Below the pieces are notes generated by a model. It was not told the origin of the DNA, did not search any database, and saw only the letters and a list, made by a program, of their open reading frames with translations. A stretch of DNA of 64,000 nucleotides from an uncultured Gammaproteobacteria bacterium (lineage in GTDB: Bacteria > Patescibacteriota > Microgenomatia > Levybacterales > GWA1-39-11): the NCBI GenBank assembly GCA_964425075.1, contig CAYRKM010000002.1, forward strand, positions 162,898-226,897, in the 5' to 3' direction. The position numbers and the translations under genes were made by a program. Positions 1 through 63,086 of the stretch are shown one piece after another. How positions within the stretch are numbered: position 1 is the first letter of the stretch; each line of letters opens with the position of its first letter.

Positions 1-934
1 TTAAATCATGCTCTGACTGAAGACGTCTAGCCTTTGTCCTCATCTCAGGAACTGAAAGTCCCGGGGTGTCATCAATATAAAGAGGGGCTTCCGCAAGCTG
101 CCCCATTGAAACGGACAATTTCTCAAAATCTTCATCTGATAATCGTCCTGTTTTTAACTTCCATGCATCAATATCACCAAGGCTTACAACAAGTCTATCT
201 GCAAGCTCTTCTTTACTCATTTCGAGAGAAAAAACTCCAACTGGCTGCTTATTAACAACAGCAGCATGAGCTGCAATATTAATAACAAAAGCCGTTTTTC
301 CCTGGCCGGGACGTGCAGCAAGAATAATAAGATTTGACTGCTGAAGACCTGATAATAAATTATCAAGATCAGTAAATCCTGTTTCAATTCCGCGAAGTCC
401 TTCACCGTTTCGCTGTAATTCTTCTATTCTGTCGAAACTCTCAGCAAGTGTTTCTTTAATATGTATAAATCCTTGCTTTATATGCTCTTGAGAAACCTTA
501 AATATCTCCTGCTCTGAATGAGACAATATTTCGTTTGCCTCTTTATCCTCAGTAAATGCATCTTCAGTTATCTGGCCACTTATTTGAATAAGAGAACGCC
601 TTACATATTTTTCTCTTATAATTTGTGCGTAATATTCACTATTTGCCGCAGTGGGAACTATGTTAGTAAGAGACGAAAGATAAGCACTCCCTCCTACCTT
701 ATCGTGCATTTTCTTTTTTTTAAGAAAACTAGTTATGGTCAGAAGGTCAATTGGTTTCCTTTCTTCATATAAAGTAAGCATCACATCATAAATTGCCTTA
801 TGTCTTTCGTCATAAAAGTTATCAGAAGAAACAAGTTGTGAAACAGAAATAATTGCATCCTTATCAATAAGAATTGCGCCTAAAACGGCCTGCTCTGCTT
901 CAATATCATGAGGAGGGATACGAACAACTGCCAT
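1..934 (-). CDS. dnaB: replicative DNA helicase DnaB (C-terminal part cut by window edge)
   Basis: Minus-strand ORF running off the window start, absent from the ORF track because it has no in-window stop. N-terminus MAVVRIPPHDIEAEQAVLGAIL; Walker A ARPGQGKTAF; DnaB N-domain architecture. Confidence 0.85.
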   Translation of the reverse strand, partial: MAVVRIPPHDIEAEQAVLGAILIDKDAIISVSQLVSSDNFYDERHKAIYDVMLTLYEERKPIDLLTITSFLKKKKMHDKVGGSAYLSSLTNIVPTAANSEYYAQIIREKYVRRSLIQISGQITEDAFTEDKEANEILSHSEQEIFKVSQEHIKQGFIHIKETLAESFDRIEELQRNGEGLRGIETGFTDLDNLLSGLQQSNLIILAARPGQGKTAFVINIAAHAAVVNKQPVGVFSLEMSKEELADRLVVSLGDIDAWKLKTGRLSDEDFEKLSVSMGQLAEAPLYIDDTPGLSVPEMRTKARRLQSEHDL

Positions 935-942
935 ACATTAAT

Positions 943-1025
943 TAGTAGTAAGTAGGTGGTAAATGGTAGAAAGAGATAAAAAATACTGCTGTTTCCTTGC
1001 TACTTACTACATTCTACATACTACC
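943..1025. repeat. TAG-rich inverted repeat pair (AGTAGTAAGTAG ... CTACTTACTAC, perfect 11-bp arms, loop about 45 nt) in the dnaB 5' region; member of a dispersed TAG-rich family
   Basis: Direct reading: 943-973 TAGTAGTAAGTAGGTGGTAAATGGTAGAAAG and 1000-1025 CTACTTACTACATTCTACATACTACC. The 15-mer CTTACTACATTCTAC recurs at 53651. Confidence 0.6.
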
Positions 1026-1027
1026 TG

Positions 1028-2878: not shown

Positions 2879-4260
2879 ATCTTTTTAAAAACTTTTGGCT
2901 TCCCTTTTGGCTGATCCAAAATCTCATAACCCATTTTTTCAATTTTATGTCTCATTTGATCGGCAAGATGAAATTTGCCATCATTTCGAAGGCTTTGCCT
3001 TTCATCAACCATCTGCAGAATAGTTCCTGGAACTTGAGTCATCTCCACTGCATTATGAAAAATCTTTACTCCCAAAATCTCATCCATTCTTCCTAAAGCA
3101 GCTGCTTTCTGAGCATCTCCTACATTACTCCTTAACATCTCCCACATAATTGATAGTGCTTTTGGCATATTTAAGTCTTGATTTACTGCATGCAAAAAAT
3201 CCATTTCATATTTATCTGCTGCCCCCTGTGGTTCTGGCAATTTGGATGCTATCTCATATATTTTCTTAAGAGCAACTGAAGCAGCTTCTAAGGATTGCCA
3301 AGTAAAATTCATCTCGCTTCTGTAATGTGTTTGCAGGGTAAGATATCTAAATGCTAATGGTGAAAATCCCTTTTCCAAAAGATCATGAATTCTATAGGTA
3401 TTTTCCAAAGATTTACTCATCTTCGTTTCATTAACCCTTAGAAAACCATGATGCACCCAGTAATTTACGAATTTCTCACCAGTTGCGCATTCGGATTGGG
3501 CAATTTCATTTGTGTGATGAACAGGTATATGATCAGTTCCTCCAGTGTGAATATCAAAATGCAGCCCCAAATATTTCATTGACATTGCGCTACATTCAAT
3601 ATGCCATCCGGGAAAACCCTCTCCCCACGGAGATGGCCACCTAAGGAAGTGGTTTTCAAACCTACCTTTTGCAAAAAACCAAAGAGCGAAATCTTGAGGG
3701 TTTTTCTTATCCTTGTCTACCACCACACCCTCTCTTGAACCAACTTCTTTCTCGTCTAATTCTTGCCCCGAAAGTTTCGTGTAATCGGGAAATTTGCTAA
3801 CATCGAAATATATTGCTTGTGGGGTTTGGTATGTATACCCTTTTTCAATAAGTGTCTCAATGAGTGCAATCTGATCTTCAATATGCTCACTTGCCCTTGG
3901 TGCAACATCTGGTTTTATAGCATTTACCCTTTTTAAACTATCCCAAAAATCCTCTTCAAAAAACCGAGCTACCTCAATCGGCGTTTTTCCGTGTTTCTCT
4001 GCTCCTTTCTCTAATTTATCAATTCCTTCGTCATTGTCTGAAGTCAAATGTCCAACATCTGTTATATTCATTACGTGCTTAACTTCATAATCATTTGCTT
4101 TTAAAACTCGAACCAAAATATCATCTCCGATGTATTTTCGAAGGTGACCGATATGCGTAAAGTCATACACGGTTGGACCACAACAATATATTCCTACTTT
4201 TGCAGGGTTAATTGGAGAAAATTCCTCAAGCTTACGAGTTAATGAATTAAAGAGTTGCAC
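2875..4260 (-). CDS. cysS: cysteinyl-tRNA synthetase
   Basis: HIGH-type motif CGPTVYDFTHIGHLRKY, KMSKSLEN motif, class I CysRS architecture. Confidence 0.95.
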   Translation of the reverse strand: MQLFNSLTRKLEEFSPINPAKVGIYCCGPTVYDFTHIGHLRKYIGDDILVRVLKANDYEVKHVMNITDVGHLTSDNDEGIDKLEKGAEKHGKTPIEVARFFEEDFWDSLKRVNAIKPDVAPRASEHIEDQIALIETLIEKGYTYQTPQAIYFDVSKFPDYTKLSGQELDEKEVGSREGVVVDKDKKNPQDFALWFFAKGRFENHFLRWPSPWGEGFPGWHIECSAMSMKYLGLHFDIHTGGTDHIPVHHTNEIAQSECATGEKFVNYWVHHGFLRVNETKMSKSLENTYRIHDLLEKGFSPLAFRYLTLQTHYRSEMNFTWQSLEAASVALKKIYEIASKLPEPQGAADKYEMDFLHAVNQDLNMPKALSIMWEMLRSNVGDAQKAAALGRMDEILGVKIFHNAVEMTQVPGTILQMVDERQSLRNDGKFHLADQMRHKIEKMGYEILDQPKGKPKVFKKI

Positions 4261-43192: not shown

Positions 43193-43519
43193 TTGAAACT
43201 TCTATTCCTTTTGGTAATATATTACCTTGTGGCAGCTAAATACCGACAACTATTTCTCCAGATGATTGAGGATAATAGAGACTTATTCCTCGACTTCAAA
43301 GAAATTCATGATAAATTTACAGAAGACCCCGAAAGCTTTAAGGATGAATTTAACGAGAAAGGTAAAGTGCTCGTTGAGATTATAAGAGAATATGAATTGA
43401 AGCTTACCGCCCAACAAAACAGGGGACAATATTCGAAGTTTTCTTCTAATTTGTCAGATAAGTTCTGGGACCAAATTAGAGGTTTCCTGCCAAAAATTGA
43501 TTTTGTTGGTGTTAAATAG
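43193..43519 (+). CDS. hypothetical protein
   Basis: Charged ORF; start may be the internal MIEDNRD. Confidence 0.35.
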   Translation: MKLLFLLVIYYLVAAKYRQLFLQMIEDNRDLFLDFKEIHDKFTEDPESFKDEFNEKGKVLVEIIREYELKLTAQQNRGQYSKFSSNLSDKFWDQIRGFLPKIDFVGVK

Positions 43520-43550
43520 GTAGAAAGTAGAATGTAGTATGTATCAAGTA
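43519..43550. repeat. TAG-rich repeat copy (GGTAGAAAGTAGAATGTAGTATG)
   Basis: Shares GTAGAATGTAGTA with copies at 53245, 53651 (reverse complement) and 1000 (reverse complement). Confidence 0.5.
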
Positions 43551-43766
43551 TTTTTTTTGATGCAATGGGGAGTTCCCTCCTCATTTTGAAAAGAACGCAT
43601 GAAACAGTGAGTGATTGAACGCCCGAAAAGCTGAAAAGCCCGAACAAAGTGAGCTGGCGAAGCTTTTAGTGAAAGATCGAACTGTTAAATGCATGAATTT
43701 TCAATTGAGGAGAGCTTCTGCTTCTCTTGTCGGCACAAGAGAAGAAAAAACTATATAATTAAAAAT

Positions 43767-44103: not shown

Positions 44104-44132
44104 ACTAAACGCTAAATGCTAACCGCTAGACG
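44104..44132. repeat. ACTAAACGCTAAA-type short repeat at a convergent gene junction
   Basis: actaaacgctaaatgctaaccgctagacgc; relatives at 49192 and 50429. Confidence 0.45.
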
Positions 44133-44144
44133 CTTCTTCCCTTC

Positions 44145-50428: not shown

Positions 50429-50460
50429 AACTAAACGCTAAACGCTAGTGGCTAAGCGCT
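50429..50460. repeat. ACTAAACGCTAAACGCTAG-type repeat/hairpin between frr and rseP
   Basis: actaaacgctaaacgctagtggctaagcgctg (imperfect palindrome AGCGCTAG/CTAAGCGCT). Confidence 0.45.
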
Positions 50461-52350: not shown

Positions 52351-53124
52351 TTAAGCTTTTTTTGTTGCGGCTTTTGCGGCAGCTTTTGAAGCCTCTTCGG
52401 CTTCCTTTGCGTCTTTTTTACCTTTGTCCTTAGACCCTTCAAGCCATGCATCGATAAGATATGTAGTTATAAGCTTGATAGAACCTACAGCATCATCATT
52501 TGCAGGAATTGAGTAATTCACTTCAGATGGATCGGCATTTGTATCAGTAATTCCTACTGTTGTAATTCCAACTCTATTTGCTTCTCTTACTGCTGTTTTT
52601 TCGTGATGAGTATCGATAATAAACACAGCACTTGGTGCTTGCTGAAGATCTTTTATTCCTCCGTAGAACATTTTAAGTTTGACAAGTTCCTTTTCGAAAA
52701 GTACAACTTCTCTTTTTGTATATCCGCCGCGATCCTCAGAATTAACAATTTTTTCAAGCTCACTAAGTCTTCTGAAATTTTTCTTAACTTCTTCAAAATT
52801 TGTAATAATTCCACCAATCCAACGAGTTGTTACCATGTGAATTGATAGCGGTGTTACTTCCCTCGCCCTTGTAACTTCTTCCTTTACAATTTGCTGTGCC
52901 TGTCTTTTGGTTCCAACAACTACCAAGCTTCCACCACGGGACGCAAGTTCTTTGATGTATTCTGCAGCCTTAATAAGCCCTTTTTGGGTGTCTTCAAGAT
53001 TGATGATATTTACCCCACTTCGGGCTTCAAAAATGTATCGATTTGCTTTTGGATTTCGGCGATTAACCTGATGTCCAAAATGACAACCTGCTTCCAATAA
53101 TTCTTCAAGAGTTATTTGTCTCAT
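52351..53124 (-). CDS. rpsB: 30S ribosomal protein S2
   Basis: LLEAGCHFGHQVNRRNPK ... with K/A-rich tail. Confidence 0.93.
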   Translation of the reverse strand: MRQITLEELLEAGCHFGHQVNRRNPKANRYIFEARSGVNIINLEDTQKGLIKAAEYIKELASRGGSLVVVGTKRQAQQIVKEEVTRAREVTPLSIHMVTTRWIGGIITNFEEVKKNFRRLSELEKIVNSEDRGGYTKREVVLFEKELVKLKMFYGGIKDLQQAPSAVFIIDTHHEKTAVREANRVGITTVGITDTNADPSEVNYSIPANDDAVGSIKLITTYLIDAWLEGSKDKGKKDAKEAEEASKAAAKAATKKA

Positions 53125-53244
53125 AATTTATGCTTTGAAACTAAAATCGCTTTTGCGATAGTAATCCTTTTTTCCTCTGTTCTTGTGGCGTTTACAGCCA
53201 GGATGTATTCAAGAACATGTGTAATGAGGGTATTATACTAAATA

Positions 53245-53277
53245 TAGTAGAATGTAGCAAGTAGAAGGCAGAAAGGT
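53245..53277. repeat. TAG-rich repeat (left arm flanking the four-helix-bundle gene)
   Basis: atagtagaatgtagcaagtagaaggcagaaagg; contains a TAGAAT -10-like hexamer. Confidence 0.55.
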
Positions 53278-53646
53278 ATGAGAATTCAAAACTTCACAGA
53301 CTTAGAAGTATGGAAAAAAGGGCATGAATTGTTTATTCAAATTTATACTGTCACAAAACATTTTCCGAACAGTGAACTTTTCGGATTCACTTCACAATTA
53401 AGGAGAGCCTCTTTGTCTATCACGTCTAATATTGCTGAAGGTTTTGGAAGAAGCTCAAGAAAAGAGAAGGTGCAATTCTATTATATTGCACATGGTTCTC
53501 TACTCGAACTCCAAAACCAGATACTTGCCGCTAAAGATGTCACTCTTATTAAAGAGGAGGAATTTGAACAATTATGGGAACTGACAATTACCGTACAAAA
53601 GTTAATCAATGGCCTCATCCGGAGCATAAAAAACTCATATTCCTAA
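53278..53646 (+). CDS. four-helix-bundle protein (23S rRNA intervening-sequence protein family, TIGR02436)
   Basis: FTDLEVWKKGHELFIQIY...SQLRRASLSITSNIAEGFGR...YIAHGSLLEL. Confidence 0.85.
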   Translation: MRIQNFTDLEVWKKGHELFIQIYTVTKHFPNSELFGFTSQLRRASLSITSNIAEGFGRSSRKEKVQFYYIAHGSLLELQNQILAAKDVTLIKEEEFEQLWELTITVQKLINGLIRSIKNSYS

Positions 53647-53650
53647 TTTT

Positions 53651-53679
53651 CTTACTACATTCTACCTGCTACTTACTAC
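53651..53679. repeat. TAG-rich repeat, inverted orientation (right arm flanking the four-helix-bundle gene)
   Basis: cttactacattctacctgctacttactac, the reverse complement of the GTAGAATGTAG/GTAGTAAGTAG motifs. Confidence 0.55.
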
Positions 53680-53722
53680 TTTAAAATTGACTTTTGTCAA
53701 TTTCAGTGGCTACACTTAGGAC

Positions 53723-54559
53723 ATGGGACAAAGAAGACGTGGCGGATTTATGTTTTTTAATATTACCTCCTCAGGTAATATGTTCGTTATTACTTTTGTT
53801 TCTTTAGTTGTCATATCAAGCCTACTTCTTGCTCGTGGTTTCTTCCCCAAATCTACTCTAACTGATCCAAAGGATAACACTCAATACGAGCTTGATGATC
53901 AGGAACAAACAGATTCTGCAACGGGTCTTCAGCTTAGAACGCTAAAGCTTAAAGAGTGCAAAAATGCTGTTGCTGTTGATATGCTTTTGGACCGATCAGC
54001 TTCAATGCAAGAACAAAACAAAATGACAAAACTAAAAGAAGCAGCAAATGGATTTACCTCAAATCTAAGCGATAACTCACTTATTGGAATACAATCATTT
54101 AGCTCCACTGGAATTAGTAATGATGTACCCATATCGCTCTATGCAAGCGTCAAACCCCTAGTTGGAAGTGCAATTAACGGCCTTAGACCCTCAGGTGCTA
54201 CACCTACAAAAGACGCCCTCGAATTCACACAAAAAATACTTGCAGATGCTGTCCAAAAATATCCCGGAAAAAATTTTGTATTAATTTTTGTCTCAGATGG
54301 AGCCCCTTGTCCAGGAATCGGATGCCCCGAAGCACCAGGAGCTAACCAGGACCCGGCCCTTTACACACCAAACCCAGCAAGTGAAATAAAAAGTCTTGGG
54401 GTTACAATTTATACAATTGCAATAGGTTCCGACCCACTTAATAGCGTAATGAGCGGTATTGCATCAAGCCCTGACACGATGTTTAGCGCCCCCACAGGAG
54501 CCGAACTTAAGGGAATATATGATAAGATTGCAACACGGCTTTGCAACAAAGTAAACTAA
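53723..54559 (+). CDS. von Willebrand factor A domain protein, N-terminally membrane-anchored
   Basis: MIDAS DRSASM, ...SDGAP... Confidence 0.78.
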   Translation: MGQRRRGGFMFFNITSSGNMFVITFVSLVVISSLLLARGFFPKSTLTDPKDNTQYELDDQEQTDSATGLQLRTLKLKECKNAVAVDMLLDRSASMQEQNKMTKLKEAANGFTSNLSDNSLIGIQSFSSTGISNDVPISLYASVKPLVGSAINGLRPSGATPTKDALEFTQKILADAVQKYPGKNFVLIFVSDGAPCPGIGCPEAPGANQDPALYTPNPASEIKSLGVTIYTIAIGSDPLNSVMSGIASSPDTMFSAPTGAELKGIYDKIATRLCNKVN

Positions 54560-54800: not shown

Positions 54801-54835
54801 TTTGCTATTGGTAACGTTTCCCTTCTCCCTTCTAC

Positions 54836-54864
54836 TTGCTACTCTCTACTTCCTACTTTATACT
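54836..54864 (+). promoter_or_regulatory. promoter TTGCTA-N17-TATACT embedded in a TAG-rich repeat, 6 nt before the glyA ATG
   Basis: tctacTTGCTActctctacttcctacttTATACTattcgcATG. Confidence 0.35.
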
Positions 54865-54870
54865 ATTCGC

Positions 54871-56211
54871 ATGTTAAGCTCTGATGATCCACAGCTTTAT
54901 TCTATTCTTAAAAAGGAAGATAAAAGACAACGAGATACCATTACACTAATCCCTTCAGAAAACTATGCTTCACTCACCGTTAGAAGCACACTTTCGTCCG
55001 TTTTAACCAACAAATATTCAGAAGGTTATGCGAAAAAACGGTACTATCAGGGAAATAAAAATGCAGACGACGCAGAACTTTTAGCAATTGAGAGGGCAAA
55101 AAAACTTTTCAGAGTAGCACACGTTAATGTTCAACCATACTCAGGCTCACCCGCAAATACTGCGGTTTATTTTGCGCTACTTAGACCCCTCGAGGACAAA
55201 ATAATGGGGCTTGCCCTTTCATCAGGCGGTCATTTAACCCATGGCTCACCAGTATCTTTTTCTGGAAAATATTTTAAAACCGTTTCTTTCCCAACAACCC
55301 GCGACGGACTCTTAGATTATGATGAAATTGAAAAGCTTGCAATTAAAGAGAAGCCTCAAATTATAGTATGCGGGTTTACGGCATATCCTCGAGTTATTGA
55401 TTTTAAAAGGTTCGGGGAAATTGCAGATAAAGTAAATGCATATTTGTTGGCCGACATCTCACATATTTCAGGGCTTATTGTTGGAGGTGCTCACCCTTCA
55501 CCATCTTTAGACGCTCATATTCTAATGACAACAACACATAAATCTTTGCGTGGACCCCGTGGCGCGATGTTAATGGTAACTGAAAAAGGCTTGAAAAAAG
55601 ATGCTGAACTTGCAGAAAAATTAGATAAAGCTGTTTTTCCTGGTCTTCAGGGGGGGCCACATGACAACCAAACCGCAGCAATTGCAGCAGCACTAAATGA
55701 AGCATTAAATCCCAAATTTAGAACCTACGCTCAGCAAATTGTAAAAAACTCAAAAGCTTTAGCTGCTACACTTACCTCTTTTGGATTTGAACTAACAACT
55801 GGTGGAACCGAAAATCATTTGATGGTTATAGATCTTACCAACAAAGGCGTAAATGGTGCCCTTGCTTCATATGCCCTAGAGCAAGCAGGAATAATAGTTA
55901 ACAAAAATACCATTCCTTATGACACAATGCCTCCATTTTATCCATCTGGAATAAGGATTGGAACGCCAGCTGCCACAACGCGAGGCATGAAAGAAAAAGA
56001 CATGCAAAAACTTGGAGAATGGATGCATCAAGTAATTGAAGAGGTAAAAAATTACAGTCTTCCAAAGGAAAAAACTGGATTCGGCAAGCTCACCACAAGC
56101 GAACGGCAACTATTCTTCAGAAAATTTAGAGATGAAGTCAAAAAGAATAAAAAGCTTCTTGCAATTGCAAAAGATGTTCAAAAATACATGAGAGAATTCC
56201 CTCTTCCATAA
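54871..56211 (+). CDS. glyA: serine hydroxymethyltransferase
   Basis: MLSSDD...IPSENYAS, SGGHLTHGS, PLP-Lys TTHKSLRGPRG; the track ORF start at 54640 is an upstream in-frame artefact. Confidence 0.93.
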   Translation: MLSSDDPQLYSILKKEDKRQRDTITLIPSENYASLTVRSTLSSVLTNKYSEGYAKKRYYQGNKNADDAELLAIERAKKLFRVAHVNVQPYSGSPANTAVYFALLRPLEDKIMGLALSSGGHLTHGSPVSFSGKYFKTVSFPTTRDGLLDYDEIEKLAIKEKPQIIVCGFTAYPRVIDFKRFGEIADKVNAYLLADISHISGLIVGGAHPSPSLDAHILMTTTHKSLRGPRGAMLMVTEKGLKKDAELAEKLDKAVFPGLQGGPHDNQTAAIAAALNEALNPKFRTYAQQIVKNSKALAATLTSFGFELTTGGTENHLMVIDLTNKGVNGALASYALEQAGIIVNKNTIPYDTMPPFYPSGIRIGTPAATTRGMKEKDMQKLGEWMHQVIEEVKNYSLPKEKTGFGKLTTSERQLFFRKFRDEVKKNKKLLAIAKDVQKYMREFPLP

Positions 56212-60538: not shown

Positions 60539-62467
60539 TTGTGCTCATTTAAACCTAATATTAGAGAAAGGTTTAATTCTCTAATGAAGAAATTATTAAG
60601 AAAAATTCATCGTTATTTCTCTAAATCCAGTCTCCGGGTTATTTCTCTTCTTGGCATTACTTTTGCACTGGTTGTAACAGCTACTCTTGCCCAACAGCAA
60701 CAAGATATACGACAACGCGCAGCAGGGGATCCTGGCGGCACAGGAGATACTAAAATAAACGGCTATTACGGAAACTCAAATAATCCCGCTGTATGTTCAC
60801 CAGAAAATGGAACATCACGTACATTTGTTCACCGTTATGCCGGGTCAACCTTCGGACCCAAACTTTTTGAATGCCCATTTCAGTCAGCATGCAAACAAAT
60901 AGACGCAGATACAATTCAATGCGCAGCAACCTACGGGACAGATATAAAGTGCGGCAATTCAGTTTGTGATGCCAGCAAGCAAACTTGTGTTCTAAATCAT
61001 TTTGATAATTCGGCGGTCTGCGTTACAAAAGGAAGCGGACCGGATGGCGCTGACTGTGATAACCCCAATGGAACTCCAAATTCTGAAGTATGCAAATCCG
61101 GTATGTGTGGGGCTGATTTGAAATGTGCTTCTTCTGCAGTGGTCACTCCATCACCTAGCTCGGGCGGTTCTAGTAGCTGTATACCAACAGGCACTGTTCC
61201 TTGTGGAAATGCTTGCCAATATTGTGATGCCGGTTGGACTTGCGGGACAGACAAACAGTGTTATCCTCCAAACACAGGCGGCAGCACAGGAGGAACAGCT
61301 ATATGTACCGGTAGTGATTTTGCCTGCAATGGAAAATGTTACAGCTGTTCAAATGGAGGAAAATGCACTAATAATAATGCTTTCTGTAATTGCCCTACGG
61401 GTTTTGTGGATGGTGGTAGTAATGTCTGTTGTCCAACAAATGCTCCTAAATATTGTTCTGATGGATATTGCAGGGCAGATTGTAACCCGCCTACAACCAC
61501 TCCTGACCCTCGACCTTCTACTTTTACACTCACAACCCCCAATATGGACTGCAACAGCGCTTATCTTTCATGGGGAACTTCCACAGGCGCAACTAGTTAC
61601 TCAATAGAAACCTATATAGACCCTTCCCAAGCACCAATTGCCTCACTTTCAAAAAGCAATTTACCGCTAAACCCAACGACTTATAAGGTGACAGGCCTTG
61701 CTCCAAGCACTATTTATTATTTCGGGATTGTTGCAAATGGAACAGGAACACTAAAAAGAACGCTTGTTGTAAATGGTATAACAACTGCAACTTGTCCGAC
61801 AGCAGGTGGAGGAACCACGTCTACCGCAAAAAAAACACCTACAGCCTCAACTAGTAACACTGTCACCACACCGGTTCCACCCAAAACCGCTTCTCCTACA
61901 ATTACTACCACTATTACATCCTCTCCTGCGATAACGGGTTCTAATTCCACCGCAAATATTTCCCTTATCCTCACTCTCCCTGGCATTGGTTCGTCTTCAG
62001 ACAGCAAGAATTCCAATCCAGCAAGAAGTACAAGAACCGTTAATGTTGGATTAGTAAATTCAAATGGCGCAATTACTTCGTCCCAAGGGGATGTGAGTTT
62101 TGATAGTTCTTCAAATTCTTTTAAAGGAACTGTCAATGTGCCAAATCTAGCTTCCGGTACGTACACTGTAAAGGTACGGCTTGATAATACATTGTGGAAA
62201 AATCTCAGCAGCTCTATAACAATTGTAAGCGGTTCAAATAACCCAACAACAAGCACTGTACGGTTGGTTTCAGGTGACCTTGACCAAAACAATAGCCTAA
62301 CTATTGCTGATTACACAAATTTTGTAAAATGTTATAAGTCCCTTGCAACATGCACTGATACACTTCATACATTGTCTGACCTTGATGACGATGGGGTTGT
62401 AAAAGACGACTTGGATGATTTAACAATTTTGCAACAAGGATTTAATACACAACAACAGGGAGACTAA
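60539..62467 (+). CDS. secreted/anchored Cys-rich, FN3-containing protein with C-terminal dockerin-like module (cassette 2, large subunit)
   Basis: TM helix, then QQQQDIRQRAAG; EGF-like Cys-rich region; FN3-like YLSWGTSTGATSYSIETY...YYFGIVANG; TA/TP linker; C-terminus GDLDQNNSLTIADYTNFVKCY...DLDDDGVVKDDLDDLTILQQGF. Confidence 0.6.
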   Translation: MCSFKPNIRERFNSLMKKLLRKIHRYFSKSSLRVISLLGITFALVVTATLAQQQQDIRQRAAGDPGGTGDTKINGYYGNSNNPAVCSPENGTSRTFVHRYAGSTFGPKLFECPFQSACKQIDADTIQCAATYGTDIKCGNSVCDASKQTCVLNHFDNSAVCVTKGSGPDGADCDNPNGTPNSEVCKSGMCGADLKCASSAVVTPSPSSGGSSSCIPTGTVPCGNACQYCDAGWTCGTDKQCYPPNTGGSTGGTAICTGSDFACNGKCYSCSNGGKCTNNNAFCNCPTGFVDGGSNVCCPTNAPKYCSDGYCRADCNPPTTTPDPRPSTFTLTTPNMDCNSAYLSWGTSTGATSYSIETYIDPSQAPIASLSKSNLPLNPTTYKVTGLAPSTIYYFGIVANGTGTLKRTLVVNGITTATCPTAGGGTTSTAKKTPTASTSNTVTTPVPPKTASPTITTTITSSPAITGSNSTANISLILTLPGIGSSSDSKNSNPARSTRTVNVGLVNSNGAITSSQGDVSFDSSSNSFKGTVNVPNLASGTYTVKVRLDNTLWKNLSSSITIVSGSNNPTTSTVRLVSGDLDQNNSLTIADYTNFVKCYKSLATCTDTLHTLSDLDDDGVVKDDLDDLTILQQGFNTQQQGD

Positions 62468-62469
62468 AA

Positions 62470-62504
62470 TAGTTAGTAGTTTGTAGAAGGTAGTTGGTAG
62501 AAAG
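62470..62504. repeat. TAG-rich repeat upstream of the second cohesin gene
   Basis: tagttagtagtttgtagaaggtagttggtagaaag. Confidence 0.45.
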
Positions 62505-62519
62505 AAATATGAACAAAAT

Positions 62520-63086
62520 ATGAATCAAAGAAAAATATTATTTCCAGCAATTATTATCGTTTTGGCCTTAATAACAGTGGCTCTTATAATCTCTGCTGTT
62601 ACTACGCCTACTAAGAATAAGGCAGGTCTCAATCCCACACCTGCTACAAAACCTTATGCCTCTCTTTCATTTTCACCTGAAAAACTTTCCCCTACAGATA
62701 CAGCTTCACAAACCGCAGACATTGTAATTGACACTAATGGTAAAGGTGTTTTTGGTGCGCAAATTGAACTTCAGTATGACCCCAACATTATTTCCAATCT
62801 CACCATAGATTTGCCTGAGAACTCTTTTTTTGGTAAAAGTAGTACTGAGCTTATAAAGCATGTCTCTCAAGAAGAAGGGCGCGCAACTTTTGCAGTTGGA
62901 GTTGGGCCAAATGACGAAGAAAAAAAAGGACGAGGAACAATTGCAACTATAAAGTTTCAAATAAACCCCTCCTCTGAGAATAAAACTGAGATTACCATTC
63001 TACCGATTTCCTCAATAAATAACTTGGTAGATGAGGGCTCAGTCTTGCTTAATTCAACCACCCTACCAATAACATTTGCTCGCTAG
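62520..63086 (+). CDS. membrane-anchored cohesin-like domain protein (cassette 2, small subunit)
   Basis: N-terminal TM; TADIVIDTNGKGVFGAQIELQYDPNIISNLTID...GRGTIATIKFQIN; paralog of 59885..60523. Confidence 0.6.
   Translation: MNQRKILFPAIIIVLALITVALIISAVTTPTKNKAGLNPTPATKPYASLSFSPEKLSPTDTASQTADIVIDTNGKGVFGAQIELQYDPNIISNLTIDLPENSFFGKSSTELIKHVSQEEGRATFAVGVGPNDEEKKGRGTIATIKFQINPSSENKTEITILPISSINNLVDEGSVLLNSTTLPITFAR

Follow-up and report, generated by a model that had tools for sequence, protein, structure and literature searches.

A four-helix-bundle gene of the rRNA intervening-sequence family lies between inverted heptamer arrays beside rpsB

Results

The gene and its flanking arrays

We analyzed a four-helix-bundle (4HB) gene and the tandem repeats on either side of it in a 64,000-nucleotide stretch of contig CAYRKM010000002.1 (GenBank assembly GCA_964425075.1), referred to as a whole as the window. 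The gene, at 53278..53646 on the plus strand, encodes a protein of 122 aa of the 23S rRNA intervening sequence (IVS) protein or S23p family. The protein matched the profile PF05635 (23S_rRNA_IVP; E = 7.4e-38; score 129.5 bits, cutoff 33.8) over profile positions 2-106 of 106, and TIGR02436 (E = 3e-36; score 123.9 bits, cutoff 24); on these profile scores, its membership of the family is secure. The closest solved structure by sequence similarity is XCC0516 (PDB 2GSC, E = 1.5e-16), a homopentameric toroid (PMC4990558). A polar motif, GxxRxxxSxxxNxxE, is conserved in the family (PMC3936711). Its RxxxSxxxNxxE portion corresponds to R43, S47, N51, and E54 of the window protein and is invariant in an alignment of 38 sequences, and its first position is Q40 instead of glycine.

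The gene is flanked by two protein-coding genes, rpsB (52351-53124, minus strand) and a vWA gene (53723-54559, plus strand), and so is not inserted in rRNA as the gene of an IVS would be. Rfam detected no rRNA in the 64-kb window, where tRNA-Cys was the sole match, and no known RNA family matched at or near threshold across 53000-53800. A preliminary description of this DNA, drawn up from its letters, had placed a TIGR02436-type gene between rpsB and the vWA gene and outside any rRNA, in agreement with the profile matches and with Rfam. The window holds one 4HB gene.

Both sides of the open reading frame (ORF) carry arrays of 7-nt units. The left arm (53243..53275, plus strand; Tandem Repeats Finder period 7, 4.3 copies) contains the units GTAGAAT, GTAGCAA, GTAGAAG, and GCAGAAA at 53247-53274, with perfect GTAG units at 53247-53264, and continues into a Shine-Dalgarno-like GAAAGG at 53271-53276. 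The right arm (53651..53683; period 7, 4.4 copies) is a GTAG-N3 array on the minus strand, read on the plus strand as CTAC at 53655, 53662, 53669, and 53676, and begins 5 nt past the stop codon of the 4HB gene. The arms are 33 nt each, inverted, and 79% complementary; in another register, a 15-nt stretch reaches 93% complementarity. With at least three tandem 7-nt units in non-coding DNA, both qualify as intergenic heptameric simple-sequence-repeat arrays. The pattern GTAGN3GTAGN3GTAG gave 10 matches (7 arrays) in the window compared to 0.00 in 100 dinucleotide shuffles, and GTAGAATGTAG, with one mismatch at most, gave 7 matches compared to 0.81 expected. The oppositely oriented TAG-rich repeats of the preliminary description are thus borne out as 33-nt inverted arms; their phased tandem structure had been missed, and the motif is not private to this gene.

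Conservation of the locus

Judged from the names that its homologues bear, the window comes from a Patescibacteria (CPR) genome. Orthologues of the 4HB gene with 88, 67, and 63% protein identity occupy the same site, divergent from rpsB and beside the vWA gene, which is inverted in the most distant of these relatives. All three retain a GTAG-type array upstream and a CTAC-type array downstream; the order and number of the units differ. Comparison of the gene with the 88% orthologue gave a nonsynonymous to synonymous ratio (dN/dS) of 0.054 at dS 1.06, by which measure the gene is under strong purifying selection. The array-containing flanks are 82-95% identical to those of the same orthologue (~95% for the left arm), and the remaining rpsB-side spacer is unalignable. 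Because the flanks are this similar although dS is 1.06, the arrays, like the gene, are under purifying selection. The shared site and arrays in the three orthologues, together with the dN/dS of 0.054, therefore indicate that the locus is ancient and fixed, and not recently mobile.

This result speaks against the suggestion in the preliminary description that the element had moved to a protein-coding locus. Comparison of the rpsB-vWA spacer for presence or absence of the gene, as had been proposed there, found the gene present and the arrays retained at 88, 67, and 63% identity, an outcome that the preliminary description had itself listed as refuting its proposal. A metagenome scan for presence or absence by way of the vWA neighbor returned one locus, a distant one with 28% identity. 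The locus also lacks the marks of a transposable element or miniature inverted-repeat transposable element (MITE): it is syntenic in the three relatives, the window has a single 4HB gene, and no direct repeat (target-site duplication) was found around the arms.

Predicted pairing of the arms

We folded the transcript of 53235-53700, a check put forward in the preliminary description. In the minimum-free-energy structure the two arrays pair with each other around the ORF (-108.4 kcal/mol, z -3.45), and the pairs that close the stem extend over the Shine-Dalgarno-like GAAAGG, giving the long-range pairing that had been anticipated. The arm duplex calculated with RNAduplex has an energy of -24.2 kcal/mol (z -3.0) at the window locus, -30.2 kcal/mol (z -4.6) in the 67% orthologue and -36.7 kcal/mol (z -5.8) in the 63% orthologue, where GUAGAAAGG, immediately ahead of the ATG, forms a perfect duplex with CCUUUCUAC, immediately past the stop codon. 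The locus has the complementary termini that characterize an rRNA IVS, in its 33-nt arms, predicted fold, and duplex energy. It also has tandem heptamers before the ORF (53247-53274) in the manner of the Coxiella IVS, which carries three copies of GACAGAT at this position.

Layout across the family

We scanned one genome per species of the Genome Taxonomy Database (GTDB) for the pattern, which gave 80 loci, nearly all from Patescibacteria; the quantitative tests were run on 81 4HB loci. At almost every scanned locus, a heptamer array extends to the ATG, and an array of the reverse complement follows the stop codon. The type of unit depends on the locus (GAAT-N3, GTAT-N3, GTAG-N3, GAAG-N3, or GATT-N3) and varies even among syntenic orthologues; the two arms of a locus agree. 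The search for the same repeat around the family elsewhere, also suggested in the preliminary description, thus showed the array-bracketed layout to be general and the unit sequence to be particular to each locus.

The match between the arms is quantitative. The median complementarity score was 13.5 within a locus, compared to 7.0 between loci and 6.0 after shuffling, and the own-locus score exceeded the 95th percentile of shuffles in 86% of the 81 loci. Likewise, the median duplex energy was -23.3 kcal/mol within a locus and -12.7 kcal/mol between loci (median z -3.35). The period-7 signal is in constant register with both ends of the ORF: A recurs at 0, -7, -14, -21, and -28 relative to the start codon, and TTC at +1, +8, and +15 relative to the stop codon. 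The arrays are also polar, with G exceeding C upstream and C exceeding G downstream in 69/81 loci. Because the polarity is fixed with respect to the ORF, it favors a function that depends on ORF orientation, consistent with a role at the level of the transcript. A strict detector found arrays on both sides of 19% of 4HB genes and of 1.5% of 1084 control genes from the same loci.

A second deeply syntenic group (L066, L071, L080, and L085) retains the layout with differing unit types. In another genome, a 4.5-kb segment (L037, 5900-10400) contains four 4HB cassettes, three GTAT-type and one GTAG-type, each with matched arms. Between these cassettes lie ORFs with N-termini that, judged by eye, resemble those of pilins, and one cassette is broken by an early stop. 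L011 and L005, the latter a Patescibacteria-type relative of the window, have a common rpsB-side flank, flanking heptamer arrays, and many arrays at equivalent offsets. The label "uncultured Gammaproteobacteria" of several metagenome-assembled genomes (those of L011, L020, L036, and others) looks wrong.

Two more specific models were tried on these loci and set aside. For a pairing register set by the start and stop codons, the advantage of 0 mod 7 was only modest (Watson-Crick fraction 0.39 compared to 0.29). A single array type per genome, as a trans-acting factor would have it, met with weak sharing (19/44 loci compared to 12.0 +/- 2.7), and the L037 segment has two types.

The family data bear on the simplest account of the arrays, namely that they are neutral microsatellites, generated by slippage, frequent in intergenic DNA, and functionless. 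Such an account can point to a density of roughly one array per 5 kb in the flanks from Patescibacteria, to a turnover of array type between close relatives at a site upstream of glyA, and to heptamers outnumbering the other classes of long simple-sequence repeats in many bacteria, with slippage proposed as the cause (PMC4679880, PMC4692102). It does not account for window flanks that are 82-95% identical where synonymous sites are saturated, for arms that are matched and polar in most of the 81 loci, for the ~13-fold enrichment of both-side arrays at 4HB genes, or for the recurrence of the layout in five phyla, and we find it barely credible.

Promoter-like sites and leaders

The left array overlaps a promoter-like site for rpsB (53232..53260, minus strand; 10/12 matches), with a -35 hexamer TTGCTA at 53260-53255, a 17-nt spacer, and a -10 hexamer TATAAT at 53237-53232. 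The -35 hexamer falls inside the unit GTAGCAA. In four orthologues the two hexamers are found at unchanged positions, the -35 being TTGCTA or TTGATA, and a conserved leader follows them. A second site, TTGACT-N18-TACACT (53687..53716, plus strand), lies just outside the right array and precedes the vWA gene; 29/30 of its bases are identical in the 88% orthologue. Upstream of glyA, a solo array gives TTGCTA-N17-TATACT, and in the 88% relative a different array at this site, of the TTGATTC type, again sets TTGATT 17 nt before TATACT. Judged from these hexamers, the arrays of this lineage also serve, on their C-rich face, as a -35 element, and the outer face of the left array is co-opted for rpsB.

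The arrays could be read as promoter or operator DNA throughout, that is, as -35 or UP-like elements whose inversion reflects two outward-facing promoters, and the rpsB site, with its conserved TATAAT, and the two glyA sites fit this. The repeats are not entirely promoters, however, since the predicted vWA promoter does not include the right array, and the preliminary description had itself named a complete explanation by promoters as fatal to its proposal. The role is also not the whole story because most unit types elsewhere lack a TTG motif and because IVSs inside rRNA carry such arrays where no promoter is needed. Moreover, a -35 box takes up just one unit of the left array, and the phasing follows the start and stop codons of the 4HB gene and not the neighboring genes. 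We assign little probability to promoter function as the general explanation.

The rpsB leader past TATAAT (53125-53231, minus strand; CTTCATTACACA...GGATTACTTCCTGGCTG...CAGAGGAAAAAAGG) aligns in four orthologues, whereas the surrounding spacer does not. Rfam gave no match for this leader, which may be an S2 autoregulatory leader. At the vWA (53687-53725) and glyA (54836-54873) starts, a -10-like hexamer ends 6-7 nt before the ATG, with no Shine-Dalgarno sequence. The vWA ATG at 53723, 7 nt past the -10, suggests a leaderless-type start, and the two genes together suggest that this organism has leaderless mRNAs.

Related arrays elsewhere in the window

GTAG-N3 arrays without a 4HB gene occur at four other intergenic places in the window, five arrays in all. 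One place is an ORF-less inverted pair upstream of dnaB (934..1027, minus strand), in which four GTAG units (1024-1000) are separated by a spacer of ~30 nt from four CTAC-type units (~983-945); the pattern search delimits the two arrays as 945-955 on the plus strand and 1000-1024 on the minus strand. When this pair is folded, the 4-nt cores pair and the N3 positions bulge. The other three places have solo arrays: a GTAG array on the plus strand (43520-43537) that starts at the stop codon of the ORF at 43193-43519; a minus-strand array (54832-54856; CTAC on the plus strand) upstream of glyA (ATG at 54871), which contains the TTGCTA at 54836-54841 and precedes the TATACT at 54859-54864; and a GTAG array of four units on the plus strand (62476-62500) between the ORF at 60539-62467 and an ORF starting at 62520.

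The glyA site has CTAC-N3 units in the window (54832-54856) and TTGATTC units in the relative with 88% 4HB identity (L001, ~3840-3890); an array is kept at this site while its type changes. We considered a decayed 4HB gene past the solo array at 43520, on account of a motif-like QLRRASASL (43702-43746), and rejected it at a tblastn E of 10. The ~150 nt between the same array and a gene for an FKBP-type isomerase (43538-43688) are non-coding, with no convincing ORF and no Rfam match at the gathering threshold. A second heptamer-array family has the core GCTA-N3 (CTAAACG units; TAGC-N3 on the other strand) and is represented at 44105-44134 and 50431-50447. Like the GTAG arrays, it puts TAG every 7 nt. 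One of its two arrays lies between convergent genes, and the other between the stop codon of an rseP-like gene and the start of the next minus-strand gene.

Arrays around family members in other phyla

The layout was observed in Patescibacteria, cyanobacteria, Bacteroidota, and Proteobacteria. Plasmid-borne family members with inverted heptamer arrays include those of Calothrix (GGGTGTA/CTACACC), Nostoc (GGGAAAA-type), Stanieria, and Riemerella (GGTTTAA/TTGAACC). On a plasmid of Pseudanabaena galeata (L094, NZ_CP112875.1 45865-47018), the 4HB gene lies between cas6 and cas4, within long direct arrays of (AAAGCTA)n upstream (at least 15 units) and (AAAGCCA)n downstream; its position agrees with the reported association of the family with cas loci (PMC3936711).

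On plasmid AZO_p2 of Azospirillum lipoferum 4B (L096, NC_016586.1 11892-17239), the 4HB ORF sits inside 23S rRNA, ~1.2 kb into the Rfam large-subunit rRNA (LSU) model (1292-4490 of L096), with GGACAGA/GGACGGA units upstream and their complement (TCTGTCC) downstream. Its position within the LSU model marks this locus as a bona fide ORF-bearing IVS. The ORF is unannotated in the gene table of NC_016586.1. ORF-bearing IVSs also occur in Leptospira and Brucella and with the Xanthomonas-type S23p. The IVS of Coxiella has three tandem GACAGAT heptamers and one degenerate unit before the S23p start codon, in a number that varies among strains, and a 28-bp terminal stem, with RNase III cleavage (the 5' processing site) at the first repeat (PMC4990558). 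Its ORF is reported to be decaying and probably untranslated. In Xanthomonas, the supplement of PMC4692102 places an array of four GGGAATC units across the start codon of XCC0516, with no remark on the family of this protein, and the paper describes 70-75 convergent inverted pairs of GGGAATC arrays (PMC4692102). The window locus has the layout of the Coxiella and Azospirillum IVSs and its arrays pair in the predicted fold, so that the IVS-like architecture of the preliminary description is upheld. That the same module sits in rRNA intervening sequences, and at the window locus in ordinary intergenic space beside rpsB, is well supported.

The spread of such cassettes over unrelated contexts (rRNA helices, cas operons, por operons, and the vicinity of pilin genes) would be natural for a selfish mobile cassette, in which the ORF and its inverted arrays form a transposable or homing unit, or descend from one, and ORF-less pairs are MITE-like derivatives or preferred targets. 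The ORF boundaries abut the arrays exactly, each cassette has its own matched arm type, and ORF-less inverted pairs are common, both here and in PMC4692102. What makes this reading quite improbable is the deep synteny at the window locus, in the group of L066, L071, L080, and L085, and in a pyruvate-oxidoreductase-like neighborhood (the last judged by eye from the flanks), along with the single copy in 64 kb and the strong purifying selection on the protein. Neither a transposase nor a target-site duplication nor near-identical dispersed copies were seen.

Discussion

The window locus is well supported as an ancient, vertically inherited IVS-type 4HB module, with its PF05635 ORF exactly between inverted arrays of 7-nt units. 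As to how the module works, our best explanation as a whole, to which we give an even chance, is that the arrays pair in the transcript, enclose the ORF, occlude the Shine-Dalgarno sequence, and form a probable substrate for RNase III. The arrays would be co-transcribed with the ORF, and the G-rich, C-poor 5' array would pair with the C-rich, G-poor 3' array into a long-range stem of ~30 bp with the ORF as its loop. This stem would occlude the Shine-Dalgarno and start region, since the 3' flank starts with UUUUCU or CCUUUC opposite GAAAGG. It would also present a double-stranded substrate to RNase III, for which the Coxiella IVS is the experimental precedent. The stem would thereby govern the stability and translation of the 4HB mRNA, and it would insulate that mRNA from neighboring transcripts. 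The preliminary description had left open a stem-loop-bounded transcript or a mobile IVS-like element; a stem around the ORF is indeed predicted, whereas a recent move is not upheld.

Several observations weigh against this explanation. A stem cut by RNase III leaves the heptamer periodicity itself unexplained. Heptamer arrays are also frequent at sites other than 4HB genes (252 in 1.31 Mb), the ORF-less pair near dnaB does not surpass shuffles in stability (z -0.13), and the Pseudanabaena cassette has direct, not inverted, arrays. Within the arms of the 81 loci, G:U mismatches are not in excess over A:C mismatches (27 compared to 44). The sense strand folds better than the antisense strand in just 38/81 loci, so that pairing could equally act in DNA. 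Permuting the units within the 3' array leaves complementarity unchanged (18.2 compared to 17.9, p 0.48); the covariation is therefore at the level of the unit type and not base pair by base pair.

The absence of an effect of unit order would be expected if the arrays were binding sites for a protein, with phased 4-nt cores (GUAG per 7 nt) bound by an oligomer, one subunit per unit. Binding would also suit a periodicity that is conserved where the sequence is not, and N3 positions that are free, with the cores alone pairing in the ORF-less hairpin. Same-type arrays recur at other intergenic sites in the window and are somewhat enriched within a locus (the 19/44 compared to 12.0 +/- 2.7 given above). 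With 3-5 units per array, and with XCC0516 forming a homopentameric toroid (PMC4990558), the binder could possibly be the pentameric 4HB protein itself, which would then regulate its own gene and other array sites. However, the cores differ widely among loci with 50-60% identical proteins, one genome has both GTAT- and GTAG-type cassettes, the sharing of array type within a locus is weak, and binding alone does not explain why the two arms are inverted and matched. We consider protein binding unlikely as the explanation of the arrays.

The window locus on its own is an ordinary conserved member of the 4HB family. What appears to be new, from the sequence comparisons, is the general picture of a gene between phased, polar, matched-arm heptamer arrays, across phyla and both inside and outside rRNA. 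In the literature that we searched for a connection between heptamer repeats and 4HB/IVS proteins, the Coxiella paper alone describes the layout, as a local detail (PMC4990558), and the passages searched of the heptamer-array papers contain no link of intergenic heptamer arrays to the 4HB/IVS family. A broader proposal, which is possible and which we put forward tentatively, is that the 4HB IVS protein and the inverted heptamer arrays are halves of one multi-phylum module, with the protein binding, processing, or propagating the array hairpins. To our knowledge, no function has been assigned to PF05635/TIGR02436, although the family is very large and one of its structures is solved, and intergenic heptamer arrays are a long-noted class of repeats for which we know of no explanation. 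If true, the proposal would explain the origin of ORF-bearing rRNA IVSs, the role of a large orphan 4HB family, and the over-representation of heptamers among tandem repeats in genomes such as those of Xanthomonas, cyanobacteria, Bacteroidota, and Patescibacteria. Should the link prove functional, two open questions would merge into one, that of a protein or RNase III acting on an array stem. Cultivable carriers are Nostoc PCC 7120, Xanthomonas campestris (XCC0516), and Riemerella. For the annotation of the window, the locus is a conserved resident gene with structured flanks, one of which overlaps the rpsB promoter.

Comparison with known systems

The 4HB protein is distantly related in fold to Avd, the four-helix-bundle accessory protein of diversity-generating retroelements, with weak matches to bAvd (E = 1.2e-4) and DivGenRetAVD (E = 2.1e-4). 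We rejected an Avd identity on scores of 21.6 against 80 bits for NF033474 and 23 against 40 bits for PF22296. Unlike Avd genes, the window gene has no adjacent reverse transcriptase and no template/variable repeat pair, and its immediate neighbors are rpsB and the vWA gene. PADLOC models of defense systems gave no meaningful match.

MITEs and repetitive extragenic palindromic (REP) elements resemble the arrays as short, dispersed, intergenic inverted repeats that are able to form hairpins. They differ in that the window arms are tandem heptamer arrays and not unique terminal inverted repeats, without target-site duplication and at a syntenic locus.

RNA-binding systems of the HutP/TRAP type read phased UAG or GAG triplets, and HutP binds UAG-N4 repeats, which are likewise 7 nt in period. 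Further nucleic-acid binders are bAvd and CspB, the latter with heptamer units as its target. By analogy, the window transcript would present UAG cores every 7 nt (UAG-N4) in its 5' region in a similar way. In contrast to these systems, no HutP or TRAP homolog was identified here, and the core sequences vary between loci.

Published intergenic arrays (Xanthomonas GGGAATC, Nostoc GGGGAYT, Beggiatoaceae/cyanobacterial TAACTGA, and the cyanobacterial short tandemly repeated repetitive (STRR) sequences), are likewise intergenic tandem 7-nt units, in 2-6 or more copies, often at start codons and frequently in convergent inverted pairs. By comparison, the window arrays lie on both sides of a 4HB ORF and keep phase with its start and stop codons, and their unit is the AT-rich GTAG-N3 and not a G-quadruplex former.

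The closest counterparts in layout are the ORF-bearing 23S IVSs. The gene at the window locus differs from them in lying between protein-coding genes beside the rpsB promoter, in a window with no rRNA. It differs from the Coxiella IVS in its Shine-Dalgarno-like GAAAGG and in the strong purifying selection on it, and RNase III processing, shown for Coxiella, is putative here. The likeness extends from the family of the protein and the position of the ORF within terminal inverted repeats, as in the S23p gene of Coxiella burnetii, to the repeats themselves: GACAGAT in Coxiella and GGACAGA in Azospirillum form tandem heptamers directly upstream of the start codon, as GTAG-N3 does in the window, and in each case the stem, predicted for the window, closes beside the Shine-Dalgarno and start region.

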